From the NCBI GenBank assembly GCA_016432425.1, contig CP066688.1:276368-340367 (forward strand): a stretch of DNA of 64,000 nt, written 5' to 3'. This DNA is from Candidatus Daviesbacteria bacterium (GTDB lineage: Bacteria > Patescibacteriota > Microgenomatia > Daviesbacterales > UBA10151). Position numbers and translations under genes: made by a program. A model generated the notes under the pieces. That model was given only the letters and a program-made list of their open reading frames with translations, made no database searches and had not been told where the DNA came from. This document shows positions 1 to 47,895 of the stretch, piece by piece; the stretch's first letter is position 1; every line of letters begins with the position of its first letter.

Positions 1-1968
1 CAACGCATTAATAATTGTGTAATTACCTCTTTTTTCTGATCCTAAAATCTGGGCCCTTTTAGAAGATAAATCTCCAATAATATCCCCCATAAACTCATCC
101 GGAGTGGTAACTTCCACCTTCATGATAGGCTCCAGCAGGATCATGTCTGCTTTTTTGGCCGCTTCTGAAAGCCCCAACGATCCGGCAATTTTAAAAGCAA
201 TCTCGGATGAGTCCACCTCATGATAAGAACCGTCATAAACTACTACCCTAATATCAGTTAGTGGATACCCTGCCAAAATCCCCGTATCTTCTTTTTCAAT
301 CACTCCTTTTTCAATAGGTGGAATAAACTCCCGGGGAATGGCCCCTCCCACAATCTCGGAAGCAAACTCTCTCCCAGTTCCACGGGCCAGTGGTTCAATC
401 CTTAGGAAACAATGCCCATATTGACCGCGTCCACCGGTTTGACGAATATACTTACCTTCACCTTGGGCCTCTTTAGTAATAGTTTCTTTATAAGCTACTT
501 GAGGTTGTCCCACATTGGCTTCCACTTTAAATTCCCGTCTCATCCGATCCACCAAAACTTCCAGCTGCAGCTCTCCCATGCCGGAAATAATAGTCTGATT
601 TGTTTCAGCATCTACTTTGACCCGGAAAGTCGGATCTTCTTCCGCTAAACGGTTTAGAGCCAAACCTAATTTTTCCTGATCGGATTTGGTTTTTGGCTCA
701 ATAGCTAAAGAGATCACCGGATCAGGGAAAGAAATATTTTCCAGCACCAAAGGCTTACTCTCCTCAGCCAGGGTATCTCCGGTAATAGTATCTTTAAGTC
801 CCACTGCCGCCACAATCTCCCCGGCAAAAGCTTCATCAATTTCTTCCCTGTCGTTAGCATGCATCAGCAACAGGCGGCCAATCCGTTCACTAACCTGTTT
901 AGTGGCATTGTAAACATAAGAACCGGATTTTAAAGTTCCGGAATAGACCCGAATATAAGTTAATTTTCCCACATGGGGATCAACTTGAATTTTAAAAGCC
1001 AAAGCAGCCAGGGGCTCTTTGGGATCAGATTTTCGCAGTTCCTCTTCACCAGCCGGGTTTATCCCTTTGACTGAAGCAATATCCTGGGGAGAAGGTAAAT
1101 ATTCTACAATAGCATCCAAAACCGGTTGTACCCCCTTGTTACGAAGAGACGAGCCAGTAAACACCGGTACAATTTTGTTGGCAATCACTGCTTTGCGCAA
1201 AGCTTTTTTCAAATCATTAACTTCTAATTCCTCTCCCCCCAAATACTTTTCCATCAACTCATCATCATTCCCGGCAATTTCTTCTACTAATTTTTCTCGG
1301 GCAGCCTCTACTGCTGATGACATCTCCACTGGAATTTCAACTTCGGTAAAATTTACCCCATCACCTTCCCACTTAAAGGCTTTTCTGGTCAGTAAATCCA
1401 CTACCCCCACAAAATCATTTTCCCGGCCAATGGGTAAATTGTAAGCAACTGCATTAGCTCCCAACCGATCCCGGGCAGATTTGATAGTGGCCATATAGTC
1501 TGCTCCCACCACATCCATTTTGTTGGCAAAAGCCAAAAGTGGGACGCTGTATTTGTTGGCCTGGCGCCAGACAGTTTCAGTTTGGGATTGCACGCCGGAT
1601 GAAGCATCCAACACAATCACTGCTCCGTCCAGCACCCGCAAGGATCGTTCCACCTCGGCAGTAAAATCTACGTGCCCCGGGGTATCAATTAAATTAAGTC
1701 TGGTTTCTTGATTTTCAAATGGCCCGGATTTAGGGGTCCAAAAAGTGGTAACGGCGGCAGAGACGATGGTGATGCCCCGCTCGCGTTCTTGTTCCATCCA
1801 ATCAGTGACGGTGGTGCCTTCATCAATATCACCGATTTTATAAGTCCGCCCGGTGTAGAATAAAATCCGCTCAGTGGTAGTAGTTTTACCAGCATCAATG
1901 TGGGCAATAATACCAATATTTCTGATTCTATCTAAGGGAAAATCCCGTTTAGTTTTTAAATTAGCCAT
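1..1968 (-). CDS. fusA: Elongation factor G (3' end runs off the window)
   Basis: Read manually on the minus strand from ATG at 1968: [40 protein letters not shown], later [10 protein letters not shown] and GGRGQYGH. Absent from the ORF track because the stop lies outside the window. Confidence 0.97.
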
Positions 1969-2185
1969 TTTGTTCCAATTCCTTAATCATTTTTTGAATA
2001 TTATTTAAACGGGCAGATAGCAAATCTGCTTGTTCCGCTGCATCTTGATATTTAGCATTTTCCCGCAAATCCCCTTCTTGAGCTGCTTCGCCTTTTTTAA
2101 CCATGGCAAGAGAAAGCTGCTCTTCTAGCTCAGCCTGCTGTTTTTTCCATAATTTCAGTTTTTCTTGTTTAACGTTTTTATTCAT
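1961..2185 (-). CDS. GreA/GreB N-terminal coiled-coil-only protein (74 aa)
   Basis: [17 protein letters not shown] matches the Gre-factor tip motif GDLxENxEY; the C-terminal domain is absent; stop overlaps the fusA start. Confidence 0.75.
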
Positions 2186-2294
2186 ACAATTTTCCTTTTT
2201 TTTCTTAACGTAAGAAACTACTTCGCGCTTCCCTTGAACTTAATTCAGGGTCGCGCTCGCAGAACCTTGCCTTTTTGACTAACGTCAAAAACGT

Positions 2295-2322
2295 AAAAAA
2301 GCCTCCTCAAATTGCGGAGGCT
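2295..2322 (-). terminator. Intrinsic terminator-like hairpin downstream of rpsG
   Basis: Minus strand AGCCTCC-gcaatttga-GGAGGCT followed by a T tract. Confidence 0.6.
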
Positions 2323-2369
2323 AAGCAAATATTAGCTTTTTTGAACCTAAAAGTCAAACGGAATTTTCT

Positions 2370-2402
2370 CTACCATCTGAAGTGGGCAAAGGCGCGGTTG
2401 GC
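2370..2402 (-). repeat. Synonymously recoded duplicate of the rpsG 3' end (ANRAFAHFRW*)
   Basis: GCC AAC CGC GCC TTT GCC CAC TTC AGA TGG TAG versus in-gene GCC AAT AGA GCA TTT GCA CAT TTT CGT TGG TAA. Confidence 0.95.
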
Positions 2403-2422
2403 CCTTCGACTTCGCTCAGGAC
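2402..2422. repeat. REP-like hairpin, CCTTCGAC-N-GCTCAGG family
   Basis: cccttcgacttcgctcaggac; related copies at 37594, 39119, 41584, 42915 and 47160. Confidence 0.85.
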
Positions 2423-2432
2423 TTCATAGAGC

Positions 2433-2909
2433 TTACCAACGAAAATGTGCAAATGCTCTATTGGCTGCTGCCACTTTTTGCATATCTTCTTTTTTCTTGA
2501 AAGCTCCACCTGTCTCTTTGGCGCCGTCCATAATTTCGGCTGCTAATTTTTGATCAAAGCTATGATACTCTTTATTGGATCTGTCGCGGGAAGCTAAAAT
2601 TAGCCAGCGAATAGCCAAAGTTTCTTTTCTGTCCCCCCGCACCTCCATTGGGACTTGATAGGAAGCTCCCCCCACTCTTCGGGGCCTTACTTCCATTTTG
2701 GGAGTAATGTTTTCAATGGCTTTTTCTAAAACTGACAGTGGCTCGGATTTTGTTTCTTCCTTTACTTGCTCCAAAGCTTTATAAACTAAACTCTGGGCAG
2801 TAGCTTTTTTCCCATCCATCATCACTCTGTTAATCAATTTTGCCACTAAAACAGAATGGTAAAGTGAATCTGGTTTAATTAATCTTTTAGTAGTTTTTCC
2901 TGATCTCAT
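2433..2909 (-). CDS. rpsG: 30S ribosomal protein S7
   Basis: RRVGGASYQVP and C-terminal ANRAFAHFRW motifs; str operon position. Confidence 0.99.
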   Translation of the reverse strand: MRSGKTTKRLIKPDSLYHSVLVAKLINRVMMDGKKATAQSLVYKALEQVKEETKSEPLSVLEKAIENITPKMEVRPRRVGGASYQVPMEVRGDRKETLAIRWLILASRDRSNKEYHSFDQKLAAEIMDGAKETGGAFKKKEDMQKVAAANRAFAHFRW

Positions 2910-2914
2910 TTGTA

Positions 2915-3382
2915 TTATCCTTCTGAAGTTGGTGCTGGAGTAGCGGCCGGAGCAGCAGTTGGACGAGGAGTACTGGCGCCTCTTTTGGTACCATAGCGGC
3001 TGCGGCTAGTTTTTCGCCCTGATACTCCCTCCAGGTCATATTTCCCTCTGACTAAATGGTATTTTACTCCCGGCAAATCTTTCACCCTACCCCCTCTAAC
3101 CAAAACAATTCCATGTTCAGCCAGGTTGTGGCCAATCCCTTGAATATAAGCTGTCACCTCAGTCCTATTGGATAAACGCACTCTGGCTACTTTACGAAGA
3201 GCTGAATTGGGTTTTTTGGGAGTCATGGTTTTGACCAAAGTAACTACTCCCCGTTTTTGGGGGTTAAAATTAGTAACATAGCGGCGGTCTTTGGCATTAA
3301 AGCTGCGCCGCAGCGCAGTGGCCTTGACTTTGCGCATGACTTTTTTTCTGGGATGCCTAATTAGTTGATTAATAGTTGGCAT
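2915..3382 (-). CDS. rpsL: 30S ribosomal protein S12
   Basis: [17 protein letters not shown] and RVKDLPGV motifs; Pro/Ala-rich C-terminal extension. Confidence 0.99.
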
Positions 3383-21224: not shown

Positions 21225-21932
21225 ATATCACACCCCCGAGGTGTGATATTATAAAAGTATGCCGTATAGATTAATCCCTTTCACTAACCAAAACTTCTAT
21301 CATATTTATAATCGTGGGGTTGAGAAAAGAAAAATTTTCTCTTCTGAAAGAAACTACCAACGTTTCCTTCAAGCTCTTTACTATTATCAATTCAGCGGTC
21401 CCAAACCACGCTTCTCTACTTACAACAGATTTCATCTAAAAGAATTTAATAAAAATCCGAAAATTGTCGATATTATCTGTTACTGCCTTATGCCTAACCA
21501 CTTTCACTTATTAGTTAGGCAACTAAGTAAAAATGGAATACAAGAATTTATGAGTAAAATCCTAAACAGCTATACCAAATACTATAATACAAAAAATAAA
21601 AGGGTTGGTCCTTTGTTTCAAGGCACATTTAAGGCTGTAAGTATAGATTCAGATGAACAGCTTTTACACTTGTCACGTTACATCCACTTAAACCCGTATG
21701 TTTCTGATCTAGTAAAAGATTTATCAAATTATTATTATTCCTCTTATCATGAATTCCTAGATTCTACAAAACAACTAGTCTGTATTACACAACCTATTTT
21801 AGATTTTTTCCCCAGAAAAGATGGTTACAAAAAATTTATTAATAACCAACAAGATTACGGTAAAACTCTACATCAAATTAAAGATGCATTAATTGACGAG
21901 GATTAATATCACACCCCCGAGGTGTGATATTA
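21225..21932 (+). mobile_element. Y1/HUH transposase element bounded by identical 27-bp hairpin direct repeats
   Basis: atatcacacccccgaggtgtgatatta at 21225-21251 and 21906-21932, directly flanking the transposase ORF. Confidence 0.85.
21259..21906 (+). CDS. REP-associated / IS200-like tyrosine (Y1, HUH) transposase
   Basis: YHIYNRG, YCLMPNHFHLL (HUH), LFQGTFK and catalytic-Tyr region YIHLNP. Confidence 0.93.
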   Translation: MPYRLIPFTNQNFYHIYNRGVEKRKIFSSERNYQRFLQALYYYQFSGPKPRFSTYNRFHLKEFNKNPKIVDIICYCLMPNHFHLLVRQLSKNGIQEFMSKILNSYTKYYNTKNKRVGPLFQGTFKAVSIDSDEQLLHLSRYIHLNPYVSDLVKDLSNYYYSSYHEFLDSTKQLVCITQPILDFFPRKDGYKKFINNQQDYGKTLHQIKDALIDED

Positions 21933-30824: not shown

Positions 30825-30860
30825 CTAACGTGCCAAACCCAATTTTTCAATGACTAATTT
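30825..30860 (-). repeat. Recoded duplicate of the rpsO 3' end ([11 protein letters not shown])
   Basis: AAA TTA GTC ATT GAA AAA TTG GGT TTG GCA CGT TAG versus in-gene AAG CTT GTC ATA GAA AAG CTC GGA TTA TCA AGA TAA; hairpin gttagc-gaa-gctaac at 30863-30877. Confidence 0.93.
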
Positions 30861-30893
30861 ATGTTAGCGAAGCTAACTCAAGATTGTCACGGA

Positions 30894-31163
30894 TTATCTT
30901 GATAATCCGAGCTTTTCTATGACAAGCTTATACCTTGCTTCTTCTTTTTTGGCTAGATACTGCAGTAATCTTCTTCTTTTGTTGACCATGGAAAGCAGTC
31001 CTCTTCGTGAATGCACATCATGAGGGTGCTCTTTTAAATGAGCTGTCAGATTTTTAATCTGTTCTGTCAGCAGCGCCACTTGCACTTCCGGAGAACCGGT
31101 ATCACCTTTTTTGGTGGCAAACTCTTTTATTATCTCTTGTTTCTTTTTAGTATCTAGTGGCAT
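30894..31163 (-). CDS. rpsO: 30S ribosomal protein S15
   Basis: [13 protein letters not shown] and [10 protein letters not shown] motifs. Confidence 0.99.
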
Positions 31164-42873: not shown

Positions 42874-42912
42874 TTATGATTTTAAAATACTTAAAAACGC
42901 TTCTTGGGGAAT
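42874..42912 (-). repeat. Recoded duplicate of the lepA 3' end (IPQEAFLSILKS*)
   Basis: ATT CCC CAA GAA GCG TTT TTA AGT ATT TTA AAA TCA TAA versus in-gene ATC CCT CAG AAG GCA TTT CTT AGC ATC CTG AAA TCA TAA; hairpin tccttcgactacgctcagga at 42915-42934. Confidence 0.95.
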
Positions 42913-42952
42913 TTTCCTTCGACTACGCTCAGGATTATAACTGCCCCACTAC

Positions 42953-44743
42953 TTATGATTTCAGGATGCTAAGAAATGCCTTCTGAGGGATTTCTACACG
43001 TCCTATCATTTTCATTTTCTTCTTTCCCTTTTTCTGCTTTTCCAAAAGTTTATCTTTTCTGGTTCTATCTCCTCCATATAATTTAGCTGTCACATCTTTT
43101 CTAAAAGGAGAAACGGTCTCTCTGGCAATAATGGTTCCCCCAATGGCCGCTTGAACAGCGATGGCAAAATTTTGCCTGGGTAGCACTTCTTTTAATTTTT
43201 CTACCATCCGGCGTCCAAAATTTTCAGCTTTGCTTCGAACAACTATACTGGAAAGTGCATCCACTTTCTCTCCGGCCACTAAGATGTCGACTTTGGCTGC
43301 ATCCACTTCTCTAAACTCTAAAAATTCGTAGTCCAGTGAAGCAAAACCGCTTGAAGTTGATTTTAATTTATCATAAAAATCAGTTACCATCTCTGAAAGG
43401 GACATTTGGTAAGAAAGCTCCACTTGGACTCCAAAATGCTGCATATTCACAAACTTGCCTCTCTTGTTAACAACCAGATCCATGACTGGCCCAATGTAAA
43501 CCTGAGGAATAAAAATTTTTAGAGACACCCATGGTTCTTTGATAACCTGCATGCTGCTGGGGTCAAGTTCGGCTGGGTTATGGACTATTTTCCCGTCAAT
43601 TTCATATTCCACCGAAGGGACAGTGGCTATTAGATCTACTCCAAACTCTCCTGACAACCTTTCTTGAACTACTTCCGCATGAAGTAATCCCAAAAACCCA
43701 CACCTAAAACCATTACCCAAAGCCCGGGAACTCTCTAGTTCAAAAGTAAAAGCAGGATCATTTAAACGAAATTTATTTAAAGCCTCCTTGGCATCAATAT
43801 AATCATCTTGGTCAATAGGGAAAAGTCCCACATAAACCATGGGTTTAACTTCTTTATAACCAGGCAAAGGTTTTGGCATTACACCTCCGAGGTGTGATGT
43901 GATAGTATCACCCACCCTAACCTTATCTGGTTCTTTTACTCCAGTTGCTATAAATCCTATTTCGCCAGCTCTCAGTTGTTCTGTTGATGTTAGCTGCGGC
44001 GCAAAATAACCCATCTCCAAAACTTGACCTTCAGCTTTAGTTCCTAAAAACTTAATAGAAGACCCTGTTTGGGGAACTTCTCCCTCTACCACTCTAACTT
44101 GAGCTATCACCCCTTTAAATGAATCAAAGAAGCTATCAAATATCAATGCTTTGAAACTTCCACCCTTGGAGCCGACACCTGCGGATTTTGGGGGCGGAAT
44201 ACGTTCAACTATGGCTTTTAAAAGTTCCTCTACTCCCTCTCCGGTCTTTCCGGAAACTAACAGTATCTCTGATGCTGAAAAGCCAAAACTATCAACTAAT
44301 TGTTTCTTTACTTCTTCTACATCAGCATTTGGTAAATCAATTTTGTTCACTACGGGAATTAAAGTTAAATTTTGATCCAAGGCTGAGAGTCCATGGGCCA
44401 GAGTTTGAGCCTGGATACCTTGAGTAGCATCCACTAAAAGTATTGCTCCCTCCACCGCAGCTAAAGCCCGGGAAACTTCATAAGAAAAATCCACGTGCCC
44501 AGGAGTATCAATTAAGTTTAGAGTATATTCTTCCTCAATGACATTTTTTCTATATCTATACTTTAACCTTACAGGTGCCAGCTTAATAGTAATACCACGT
44601 TCACGTTCCAAGGCTAAAGAATCCAGTAGCTGAGGTTTTAATTTATCCTTAGCAACAGTCCCGGTAATTTCTAACAACCGGTCAGCCAAGGTAGATTTAC
44701 CATGATCAACATGAGCAATAATACTAAAATTCCTAATATTCAT
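42953..44743 (-). CDS. lepA: Elongation factor 4 (LepA)
   Basis: IRNFSIIAHVDHGKSTLADR, GFRCGFLGLLH and KLLEKQKKGKKKMK motifs. Confidence 0.99.
   Translation of the reverse strand: MNIRNFSIIAHVDHGKSTLADRLLEITGTVAKDKLKPQLLDSLALERERGITIKLAPVRLKYRYRKNVIEEEYTLNLIDTPGHVDFSYEVSRALAAVEGAILLVDATQGIQAQTLAHGLSALDQNLTLIPVVNKIDLPNADVEEVKKQLVDSFGFSASEILLVSGKTGEGVEELLKAIVERIPPPKSAGVGSKGGSFKALIFDSFFDSFKGVIAQVRVVEGEVPQTGSSIKFLGTKAEGQVLEMGYFAPQLTSTEQLRAGEIGFIATGVKEPDKVRVGDTITSHLGGVMPKPLPGYKEVKPMVYVGLFPIDQDDYIDAKEALNKFRLNDPAFTFELESSRALGNGFRCGFLGLLHAEVVQERLSGEFGVDLIATVPSVEYEIDGKIVHNPAELDPSSMQVIKEPWVSLKIFIPQVYIGPVMDLVVNKRGKFVNMQHFGVQVELSYQMSLSEMVTDFYDKLKSTSSGFASLDYEFLEFREVDAAKVDILVAGEKVDALSSIVVRSKAENFGRRMVEKLKEVLPRQNFAIAVQAAIGGTIIARETVSPFRKDVTAKLYGGDRTRKDKLLEKQKKGKKKMKMIGRVEIPQKAFLSILKS
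43877..43899. repeat. Copy of the transposase-flanking hairpin in-frame inside lepA
   Basis: cattacacc-tccga-ggtgtgatg versus atcacacc-cccga-ggtgtgat at the transposase ends; peptide SHLGGVM. Confidence 0.8.
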
Positions 44744-47121: not shown

Positions 47122-47157
47122 TCATAATAAATAGATATCAATGAAGTGTGCCCTCCA
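47122..47157 (-). repeat. Recoded duplicate of the G5/3D gene 3' end (WRAHFIDIYLL*)
   Basis: TGG AGG GCA CAC TTC ATT GAT ATC TAT TTA TTA TGA versus in-gene TGG AGA GCT AGA TTT ATT GAC ATT TAC CTC TTA TGA; hairpin acttcgccgtagctcagt at 47160-47177. Confidence 0.93.
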
Positions 47158-47193
47158 GCACTTCGCCGTAGCTCAGTACTTTCGCGCTAGATT

Positions 47194-47895
47194 TCATAAG
47201 AGGTAAATGTCAATAAATCTAGCTCTCCAGCCTGCTATTCTGGCATCATCAAAGCCTAGATCTATAATATTTCCTTTGATTGCTCCACCAGTGTCCCCTG
47301 CCACTGCCACTCCGTATCCGGGGACATAAATTTTACTTCTTAAGTTTATAACTTTGGGATCAACTGCGATCACTCCCTTACCAGCTTTCATTCCGATGGC
47401 TGTCCATTCATTACAGCCAGGGCACCTGGAATCATAGTGAGTGGCATAAACCCTCATTTTTTTCCAATATCTAATTTCACCCTCAGGAGTTTGTATACTT
47501 TTCCAGACAATTTTGGTCCCCCGCAAAATTTGTTTATCTTTGGGGATAGTCACTTCCGTGGAGATAACCTCTCTCTTCCAAGGCTTACCTTCAAAATAAG
47601 TAACTTTAGTAATGATCGTTTTTTTACCATCCACCCCTTCATCTATTACTTTTTCAATTTCCGCATCAACTTGCGGATCATCTTGATAAACAATACTTTT
47701 GGCAATAATTTCTCTACTTTCCTCCAATTTTTCGGAAAAACGAGACTCTGTATGGAGGGGCTGGCTGGCTGGCAAAGAATCATTAACAACTGGCTGGTTG
47801 CCAGGAGCCTCTGCTAAAACAACTGTCCCCATCCAACCTTGCTGGAATAAAAATGAAGTCATCACAATTAATAAGGCACCTAGATAACGTTCCAT
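47194..47895 (-). CDS. G5 and 3D domain cell-wall protein (YabE/Sps-like)
   Basis: G5-like EGVDG...ILRGTK; 3D motifs IAVDPKVI and AGDTGGAIKGNIIDL. Confidence 0.9.
   Translation of the reverse strand: MERYLGALLIVMTSFLFQQGWMGTVVLAEAPGNQPVVNDSLPASQPLHTESRFSEKLEESREIIAKSIVYQDDPQVDAEIEKVIDEGVDGKKTIITKVTYFEGKPWKREVISTEVTIPKDKQILRGTKIVWKSIQTPEGEIRYWKKMRVYATHYDSRCPGCNEWTAIGMKAGKGVIAVDPKVINLRSKIYVPGYGVAVAGDTGGAIKGNIIDLGFDDARIAGWRARFIDIYLL

Follow-up and report, generated by a model that had tools for sequence, protein, structure and literature searches.

Why would the last codons of an essential ribosomal protein gene be written out a second time, in different codons, just behind its stop? The gene is rpsG, encoding ribosomal protein S7, which lies intact on the minus strand of the window, the whole stretch of 64,000 nucleotides that was analysed (2433..2909; 158 amino acids; an open reading frame with a PF00177 match, E 1e-56). 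Its final peptide, ANRAFAHFRW*, is encoded by two copies on that strand, at a spacing of 63 nucleotides. Copy 1 (2433..2465, minus strand) is the translated end of rpsG and, from 2463 onward, probably the incoming sequence; copy 2 (2370..2402, minus strand), which has no in-frame start codon past the first stop, is probably the former gene end, displaced. The original prediction had noticed both copies at this spacing, and the coordinates agree with it.

Codon comparison likewise upholds what had been said of the differences. The copies differ at 10 of 33 bases with zero changes to the peptide. Eight of these differences are at third positions, one being that of the stop codon (TAA/TAG), and the other two are at the first positions of both arginine codons (AGA/CGC and CGT/AGA), the switch between AGA and CGN reported before. 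A base change placed at random here would be silent with a probability of 0.20–0.27, so that ten silent changes out of ten have a probability of 1e-7 to 2e-6, and the earlier argument against a decaying tandem duplication stands. Pairs of rpsG orthologs with the same peptide (n = 250) show a mean of 6.5 differences per 33 nucleotides, with at least ten in 10 of the 250, and the divergence of the two copies here is about that between the rpsG ends of different genera. The silent differences are therefore most likely older than the duplication. This degree of divergence favours the further proposal that one copy came from a diverged rpsG allele, but the recurrence of a structured unit speaks against a one-off import.

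Contigs from two sequencing runs span both copies with zero differences (run X1, 1900–2851; run X4, 1900–3239), so that mis-assembly is excluded and the two copies do belong to one sequence, as had been supposed. These two runs are possibly the source samples; their evidence consists of assembled contigs rather than raw reads and is uninformative on rare alleles. No circle, empty allele or deletion joint was found in the contigs of six runs, a form of data that loses rare forms, and the rpsG pieces in contigs of X5 and X6 are those of other organisms only. The genome containing the window (G000) is a single 820-kb contig, 99% complete.

Anatomy of the 63-base unit

The unit of 63 nucleotides (2401..2463, minus strand) comprises two unpaired bases, tail copy 1 with its stop, an arm, a GAA linker, and a hairpin. 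Its left junction probably lies between the second and third base of the alanine codon, give or take one base, as judged from the register common to related units and from two otherwise near-identical units that differ in the first base. The arm (GCTCTAT, 2426..2432, minus strand) stands immediately 3′ of the stop and is a feature absent from the original prediction: these seven bases, 2432–2426, exactly complement 2461–2455 in copy 1. That stretch, ATAGAGC (2455..2461, minus strand), lies within the Asn-Arg-Ala codons and forms the 5′ strand of helix P1; in register, the arm pairs at 7 of 7 positions with copy 1 and at one base with copy 2. The linker (2423..2425, minus strand), kept as G(A/C)A in aligned related units, leads into helix P2 and the terminal hairpin (2401..2422, minus strand; GTCC...GGGC around TGAG/CGAA), which belongs to a dispersed repeat family of the genome. 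Thirty bases separate the rpsG copies, and the last two bases of P2 are the first two of the alanine codon of copy 2. The hairpin quoted at the outset, 2422–2402, does run into the second copy, its final G being the first base of that copy. Tail, arm, and hairpin together would be predicted to close into a dumbbell.

No open reading frame exists in the 63-nucleotide unit. Its circular folding energy is not better than that of shuffled sequences (z 0.3), and Rfam 15 gave no match at the gathering score between 1900 and 3000 of the window (best E 1.4), nor any match in eight array loci. Hammerhead and hairpin ribozymes were considered and rejected, as inspection by eye found no CUGA core and no GUC at the junction. 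The exact hairpin-plus-tail pattern had 0 matches in the genome collection and, among 301 genomes of the phylum, was found in G000 only; the short unit variant is thus private to this genome within the searched set.

Beyond copy 2, a sigma-70-like promoter match (2328..2357, minus strand) precedes a 74-amino-acid open reading frame with a GreA N-terminal domain (1961–2185), and the same promoter and reading frame stand close behind a single rpsG tail in L008–L010. Across loci L002–L030, the DNA 3′ of the rpsG stop varies between genomes of the family; unrelated genes have been inserted ahead of fusA or a greA-like gene, and in most cases no displaced tail can be seen.

Recurrence at other gene ends and in other genomes

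With up to three mismatches allowed, the 18-nucleotide core of the hairpin is matched 16 times in the genome; a looser motif is matched 44 times, compared with 7–20 in shuffled sequences. Members of the family stand behind genes in both orientations (4 and 4). A hairpin of the rpsG type follows the stop on the same strand within 80 nucleotides at four genes, three of which also have a recoded tail (rpsG, lepA, and groES). The fourth is presumably an intron endonuclease reading frame: at G000:C1:500457–500940, 148 codons with what we take to be a LAGLIDADG-like motif are followed by the hairpin, in an apparent group I intron of 23S rRNA. Two long reading frames, presumably uvrA-like and MurT-ligase-like, hold the hairpin in frame (C1:775239 and 726401, minus). 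Some 400 bases separate a further copy, at C1:669921, from a match to tyrosine recombinases (670300) on the opposite strand. In L333, an identical 18-nucleotide core caps the longer body of a type-A rpsG unit.

A scan for tail repeats anchored at the stop, requiring at least six identical residues within 500 nucleotides of the gene end, found 5 of 808 genes: rpsG, rpsO, lepA, groES, and a gene with a G5/3D domain. Five permutations of the 808 genes gave one match in all. The periods of the five are 63–88, with a hairpin between the copies in each. At rpsO, encoding S15 (30825..30929, minus strand), copies at 30894–30929 and 30825–30860 with a period of 69 have 13 differences, including one Ser/Ala change, and a contig of run X3 spans the whole without a difference. 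The lepA copies (42874..42991, minus strand; 42953–42991 and 42874–42912, period 79) have 12 differences and one Lys/Glu change, and enclose an rpsG-type hairpin at 42916–42933; an identical hairpin and junction are found behind lepA in two other genera (L254 and L267). The G5/3D-domain gene (47122..47229, minus strand; 47194–47229 and 47122–47157, period 72, 11 differences) carries an arm and a TGAG/CGAA hairpin between its copies. Outside the window, groES (L481, G000:C1:349028–349345) has a recoded tail 88 bases downstream with an rpsG-type hairpin ahead of it, and a family-2 glycosyltransferase (L482, C1:145175–145966) provides a weaker sixth case, with 74 bases and a different hairpin. 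Within lepA, the stretch 43175–43223 shows six substitutions in its 49 bases between the window and the contigs of four runs, five of the six silent and one Val520Ile; this short stretch either stems from another allele or was misassembled in the window.

A degenerate rpsG tail pattern is present in 293 of the 401 genomes of the class, and its reversed control has zero matches there. Two or three matches occur in 22 class genomes, in tandem on one contig in 19; in those left out (G077, G135, and G186), the paired matches lie on different contigs or strands. Two further arrays, with one residue changed, were in regions first taken as single-tail, and two further ones were found among the first 30 loci. 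Among 30 genomes of the family, an rpsG array is present in G000 only. Across the genome collection, the tandem pattern occurs at 58 loci, with arrays of up to five copies, under titles naming Patescibacteria, Spirochaetes, Lachnospiraceae and Eubacterium, Actinomycetota, Vicinamibacterales, Planctomycetales, and NC10. The label “uncultured Gammaproteobacteria” is borne by many records of Patescibacteria-like sequence, so the titles are unreliable for taxon counts. In L087, L098, L102, L112, and L122 (Actinomycetota, NC10), about 20 codons of the rpsG end are repeated around a short G+C-rich spacer.

De-duplicated and with metagenome loci included, the set holds 95 rpsG arrays with 119 units, 114 of which are 200 nucleotides or shorter. 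The 95 arrays have 385 silent and 12 replacement codon differences, a ratio inflated by overlap between the sets, by the non-independence of kin, and by searches that required the peptide. Both copies usually encode the peptide of the host lineage (37 of 42 units), and odd residues, present in 6 of 97 arrays, are always in a later copy and never in the first. Over all Patescibacteria units, recoding shows no general excess (3.9 vs 4.1 differences per 21 nucleotides); an excess is confined to 13 type-A units (40 of 52 third positions vs 28.5, P 0.0006). Hairpins differ by lineage, and the window unit is assigned to type A.

The long type-A body is itself a dispersed repeat of 117 loci, nearly all in Patescibacteria-like sequence. 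Among 115 usable copies, 23 are flanked by a recoded tail, compared with 3 of 342 shuffled pairs; the genes concerned are rpsG, rpsI (PF00380), secA, and others. The remaining 92 are solitary, some of them, by eye, with a non-coding hairpin replacing P1. Solitary bodies in which such a hairpin takes the place of the gene tail (L367, L383, L384, L398, L400, L417, L435, L450, and others) lie between short TCAAG-type repeats, a motif that is the reverse of the −35 promoter box. The element body was not found in viral contigs, three of which hold one tail apiece in a host-like rpsG–fusA context. Units of 400–1800 bases between repeated gene tails carry ordinary cargo (L274, L043/L134/L310, L020, L320, and L032), among it a TrpR-like gene in L043/L134, a DUF5678-like gene in L020, and, behind lepA in L274, a PIN-domain gene with a small upstream partner.

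Pairing between a tail and the bases behind its stop was compared across 89 units of all types. The post-stop region is more complementary to its own tail in 50 units, less in 12, and tied in 27, and at least seven pairs follow the stop in 39 of the 89 as against 3 of 50 single tails. In a set of 42 distinct type-A units, two of which are probably false pattern calls, in-register pairing of the arm is better with its own tail in 28, better with the next tail in 4, and tied in 10. In arrays, every arm pairs with the immediately preceding tail and not with the first. Ten of 13 units fold as two unpaired bases, a P1 of 6–12 base pairs with their own tail, G(A/C)A, and P2. In L032 and L046, the junction is 4 bases further on and the arm is shifted alongside; L128 and L132 misfit the dumbbell register, and L031 gave no result in this comparison.

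An alignment of 21 units, chosen by hand from the long-body units plus the window unit, pairs in 95.4% of its cells compared with 26–45% in slid controls, a comparison that favours the structure since it was drawn from the same 21 sequences. Both partners have changed in 20 of the 32 pairs, among them 5 of the 10 that make up the tail/arm helix P1; these compensatory changes support the predicted tail/arm pairing across related units. G-T pairs number 20 and A-C mismatches 6 in the helices, which suggests that the sense strand is the one that folds. Because the arm pairs poorly with the displaced copy, it would be a weak guide for choosing a target.

Proposed movement and competing explanations

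Given the established anatomy, the conserved pairing register, the recurrence at many conserved genes, and the stacking into arrays, the reading that we prefer, at a probability of roughly 0.55, is that 2463–2401 is a protein-free mobile unit whose own synonymous tail completes rpsG while the earlier tail is left downstream. Insertion would occur at a fixed point ten codons ahead of the stop. As single-stranded DNA, the unit would form a closed dumbbell with a small GA-rich loop between its two stems; cutting and rejoining of strands at the foot of the second stem (P2) would fall to an enzyme acting in trans. Entry into the orthologous site of a related host may be aided by tail homology, and only units restoring the correct peptide would survive. 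With each further round, a tail that had lately been in use would become the downstream copy, which could explain why copy 2 is diverged yet intact.

A broader version is offered more tentatively. Gene-less dumbbell minicircles of single-stranded DNA, 50–150 bases in size, might constitute a widespread class in which about ten terminal codons of a conserved gene serve as one stem. They would home across species to that gene end by means of a host hairpin-specific nuclease in trans, stack there, and sometimes bring cargo, with rpsG as a hotspot and with different hairpin families in at least six phyla.

For the unit family, the question of which copy is foreign is settled: the first is the incoming one. 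The gene bodies of L308 and L357 differ at 29 of 204 bases (14%) and their second copies at 5 of 9 codons, and yet the units are one base and one 3-base indel apart; this unit has been shared as a block between related hosts. In L309, the second copy and the DNA downstream of it are a close match to L134's working tail plus cargo; a short unit has therefore been stacked ahead of an older one. The first lepA copy carries a Lys at a position that is Glu in the working tail of the other 29 family loci, and 22 of 26 single-copy orthologs are nearer copy 2. In L356/L309 and L332/L346, the element body is common and the first tail is not. Divergence between related hosts is no slower in the tails than in the gene body.

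The strongest competitor, which we consider unlikely but worth serious weight, accepts the unit as described and has it spread only within a larger allele, by transformation and homologous recombination as in the WHO elements of yeast. The gene body would be the left homology arm and the displaced tail the right, no free dumbbell would exist, and the hairpin would be at most a nicking signal. Such a mechanism leaves the donor tail first and the recipient tail last, according to the accessible text of PMC7282813. It is also consistent with similar units being common mainly to related hosts; no element pair at least 88% identical was found between hosts more than 25% apart in protein. Mosaic first copies in L309 and L046 suggest crossovers within the tail, some cargo-bearing units exist without a hairpin at the right junction (L043/L134, L020, and L274), and type-A pairs diverge more than random orthologs, as resistance or survival of diverged repeats would allow. 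What transformation on its own leaves unexplained is the origin of new units at many genes and the two-base register of arm and junction, which closes only when the ends of the unit meet. Nor was a nuclease or recombinase gene present between copies in the arrays read.

At the rpsG locus of the window, the sequence leaves polarity contested, and the opposite direction, improbable on the whole, finds its best ground here. Copy 1 would be the host tail and the hairpin with copy 2 the incoming part, the arm being a guide that reads the target or a copy made from the resident tail. Codon usage favours copy 1 as the host-like one, with lnL −7.8 against −12.0 for copy 2 by the whole genome and −7.6 against −12.2 by a gene set rich in ribosomal proteins. 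Twelve rpsG orthologs of the family are nearer copy 1 and 5 nearer copy 2, the corresponding figures for rpsO are 19 and 9, and by GC3 the better fit is the first copy in 17 of 30 arrays and the last copy in 10. G349, a family member, ends in a single tail identical to copy 2 at 32 of 33 bases, and type-A second copies are C-richer than single tails (P 0.006). Weighing against the reversal, C-rich tails resembling copy 2 are the working tails of the AT-rich relatives L222 and L134, which weakens the codon-usage argument. The arms of arrays also pair with the preceding tail and not the first, identical tail, arm, and body occur in diverged hosts having different second copies, and the lepA evidence is contrary. 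Empty alleles from the same genus, with 43–53 third-position differences per 100 codons, are near saturation and so uninformative for polarity; the genera of G402 and G082 are represented by two genomes each. The question raised in the original prediction, which copy continues the host lineage, has a divided answer: the first copy is incoming in the unit family, while codon usage here favours copy 1.

Just as improbable is an old duplication in place, dating from the arrival of a hairpin repeat behind the stop, passed on by vertical descent, and kept intact by occasional excision or by a function of the folded RNA. Identical copies in 16 of 89 units, with no difference across 21 nucleotides, would fit such an origin, as would the host lineage's peptide in both copies and a preference for folding of the sense strand, as for an RNA structure. 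The patchy occurrence, in G000 alone among the 30 family genomes, does not, and neither do tails that outpace the gene body when related hosts are compared, the near-identical units of two hosts 14% apart, or hairpins behind genes in both orientations and with no Rfam match. Chance, assembly artefact, or plain decay of a tandem duplication, for which the shortness of the repeat and nothing further speaks, can be set aside given ten silent changes of ten, contigs of two runs bridging the copies, recurrence in 95 distinct rpsG arrays, and a peptide-blind nucleotide scan, of low power for strongly decayed copies, in which near-identical gene-end duplicates were not above control.

Known systems and a candidate enzyme

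Mobile units that regenerate the 3′ end of their target are known from yeast. The accessible parts of two sources (PMC7282813; 10.64898/2026.08.13.744650) describe WHO elements at FBA1 whose insertion replaces the 3′ end of this essential gene and shifts the old one downstream; successive units form clusters in which the latest arrival adjoins the gene, and the gene end evolves faster than the body. These units are kilobases long, have a LAGLIDADG endonuclease, and swap about 400 bp. The bacterial units similarly replace the 3′ end, leave the old end downstream, and stack, a likeness that holds for the family and is contested at the window locus. In contrast to the WHO elements of those accounts, they are mostly 49–200 bases long, swap about ten codons, lack a nuclease gene, have an arm that pairs with the tail, and occur at many different genes; the encoded LAGLIDADG/intein-like endonuclease that defines WHO elements there is absent from the window unit. 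A WHO-like system would also have an element-borne end that resists a site-specific cut to which the displaced end is sensitive; a mere hint of this in the bacterial units is an alanine codon with final C in 4 of 42 first copies and 20 of 42 second copies. The e14 prophage of E. coli, in the accessible part of PMC13626634, is flanked in icd by the working gene end and a displaced, diverged fragment, icdC; it is a 15-kb prophage using site-specific recombination, and its excision gives synonymous changes. The window unit also lies between a working gene end and a displaced, diverged one, but unlike e14 as presented there it is a folded 63-mer without integrase, phage gene, or long identical core.

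In the Ssn system, oriented dispersed hairpin repeats (SRM/NTS) flank a small single-domain GIY-YIG gene, and SsnA cuts single-stranded DNA beside the hairpin, upstream of the repeat, and modulates integration of transforming DNA (PMC11893778, accessible part). The Ssn nucleases, a sister family of the G000 enzyme, bind these oriented hairpins. The hairpin family of the window flanks its own small GIY-YIG gene in a similar way. The SRM pattern as given in that part of PMC11893778, however, matches two other places in G000 and not the window hairpin, and gene-end duplication is not reported there. The closest solved structures to the enzyme of G000 are the UPF0213 proteins 1zg2 and 1ywl.

REP/REPIN sequences with RAYT and the peel-and-paste elements of the IS200/IS605 group are non-autonomous hairpins that move as single-stranded DNA by an enzyme in trans, with cutting and rejoining at the hairpin foot and a circular intermediate. 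The window unit shares the non-autonomous, imperfect hairpin, and the same would hold for the trans enzyme, the cut at the hairpin foot, and the circle proposed here. No known member of these groups is reported to carry a replacement gene end, and the window hairpin differs from those flanking the three Y1 genes of G000. Integron cassettes have attC hairpins with a GTTRRRY core, folded single-strand junctions, optional cargo, and arrays that grow at a fixed site. Arrays at a fixed site, optional cargo genes, and, as proposed, folded single-strand junctions are found here as well; unlike in integrons, the junctions read have no GTTRRRY core, no integrase lies beside the arrays, and the entry site is within coding sequence.

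No description of gene-less tail-replacing units in bacteria was found in the open-access literature. The unit is real and recurrent, a gene-less variant of elements that regenerate the 3′ end of their target, and apparently undescribed in print. The novelty lies in rpsG being a hotspot in several phyla, in a dumbbell register that is fixed and shows covariation, and in the pair L308/L357 with its block-shared unit. If the preferred reading of a protein-free mobile unit is true, a selfish element can live at an essential gene without intron, intein, or enzyme of its own, by carrying the last codons. This would explain rapid synonymous turnover at the ends of ribosomal and other marker genes, a turnover that would matter for phylogeny and codon analyses. 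It would also offer a concrete substrate and cut site for the uncharacterised UPF0213-like nuclease family and suggest how integrase-free cassettes gather behind conserved genes in small-genome bacteria. So small a system for site-directed insertion of single strands would be attractive as a tool, too.

The small GIY-YIG gene of G000 (102 amino acids, a PF01541 reading frame at C1:751670) starts inside an rpsG-type hairpin, with inverted copies upstream. Among 76 distinct relatives of this gene, 40 have the hairpin within 200 nucleotides upstream; the hairpin is so placed at 10 of the 808 gene starts of G000 and in 0 of 139 mostly coding control windows. The gene is thus linked to the hairpin. 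Its UPF0213-like product is the best, if weakly supported, candidate for the enzyme of the putative tail replacement; in these incomplete genomes, the gene is not enriched with arrays (9 of 19 array genomes vs 213 of 401 overall).

Other sources of mobility were considered and rejected. For an autonomous element, no tail duplication spans the nuclease gene in 80 GIY-YIG loci, the two matches being paralog-like. The three Y1 transposase genes of G000 are flanked by other hairpins, of the CACCCCCGAGGTG or CACATCGGGAGTGG type. The three tyrosine recombinase matches (C1:428417, 670300, and 787719) are far from rpsG (278800), and the reverse transcriptase family PF00078 was not found in G000. At 21260–21910 of the window (G000:C1:297626–298273), a Y1 transposase-like gene lies between identical 21-base hairpin repeats of another family, and hairpins similar to these occur inside the 414-base rpsG unit of L020.

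Of the 76 GIY-YIG relatives, 24 follow a tRNA, and a repeated tRNA 3′ end lies beside the gene in 1 of these 24 loci. In G000 itself (L061, C1:751500–751978), a tRNA-Gln-like gene is followed by nested inverted hairpins and then by the small GIY-YIG gene, and the tRNA-Gln context recurs in 22 of the 76 relatives.
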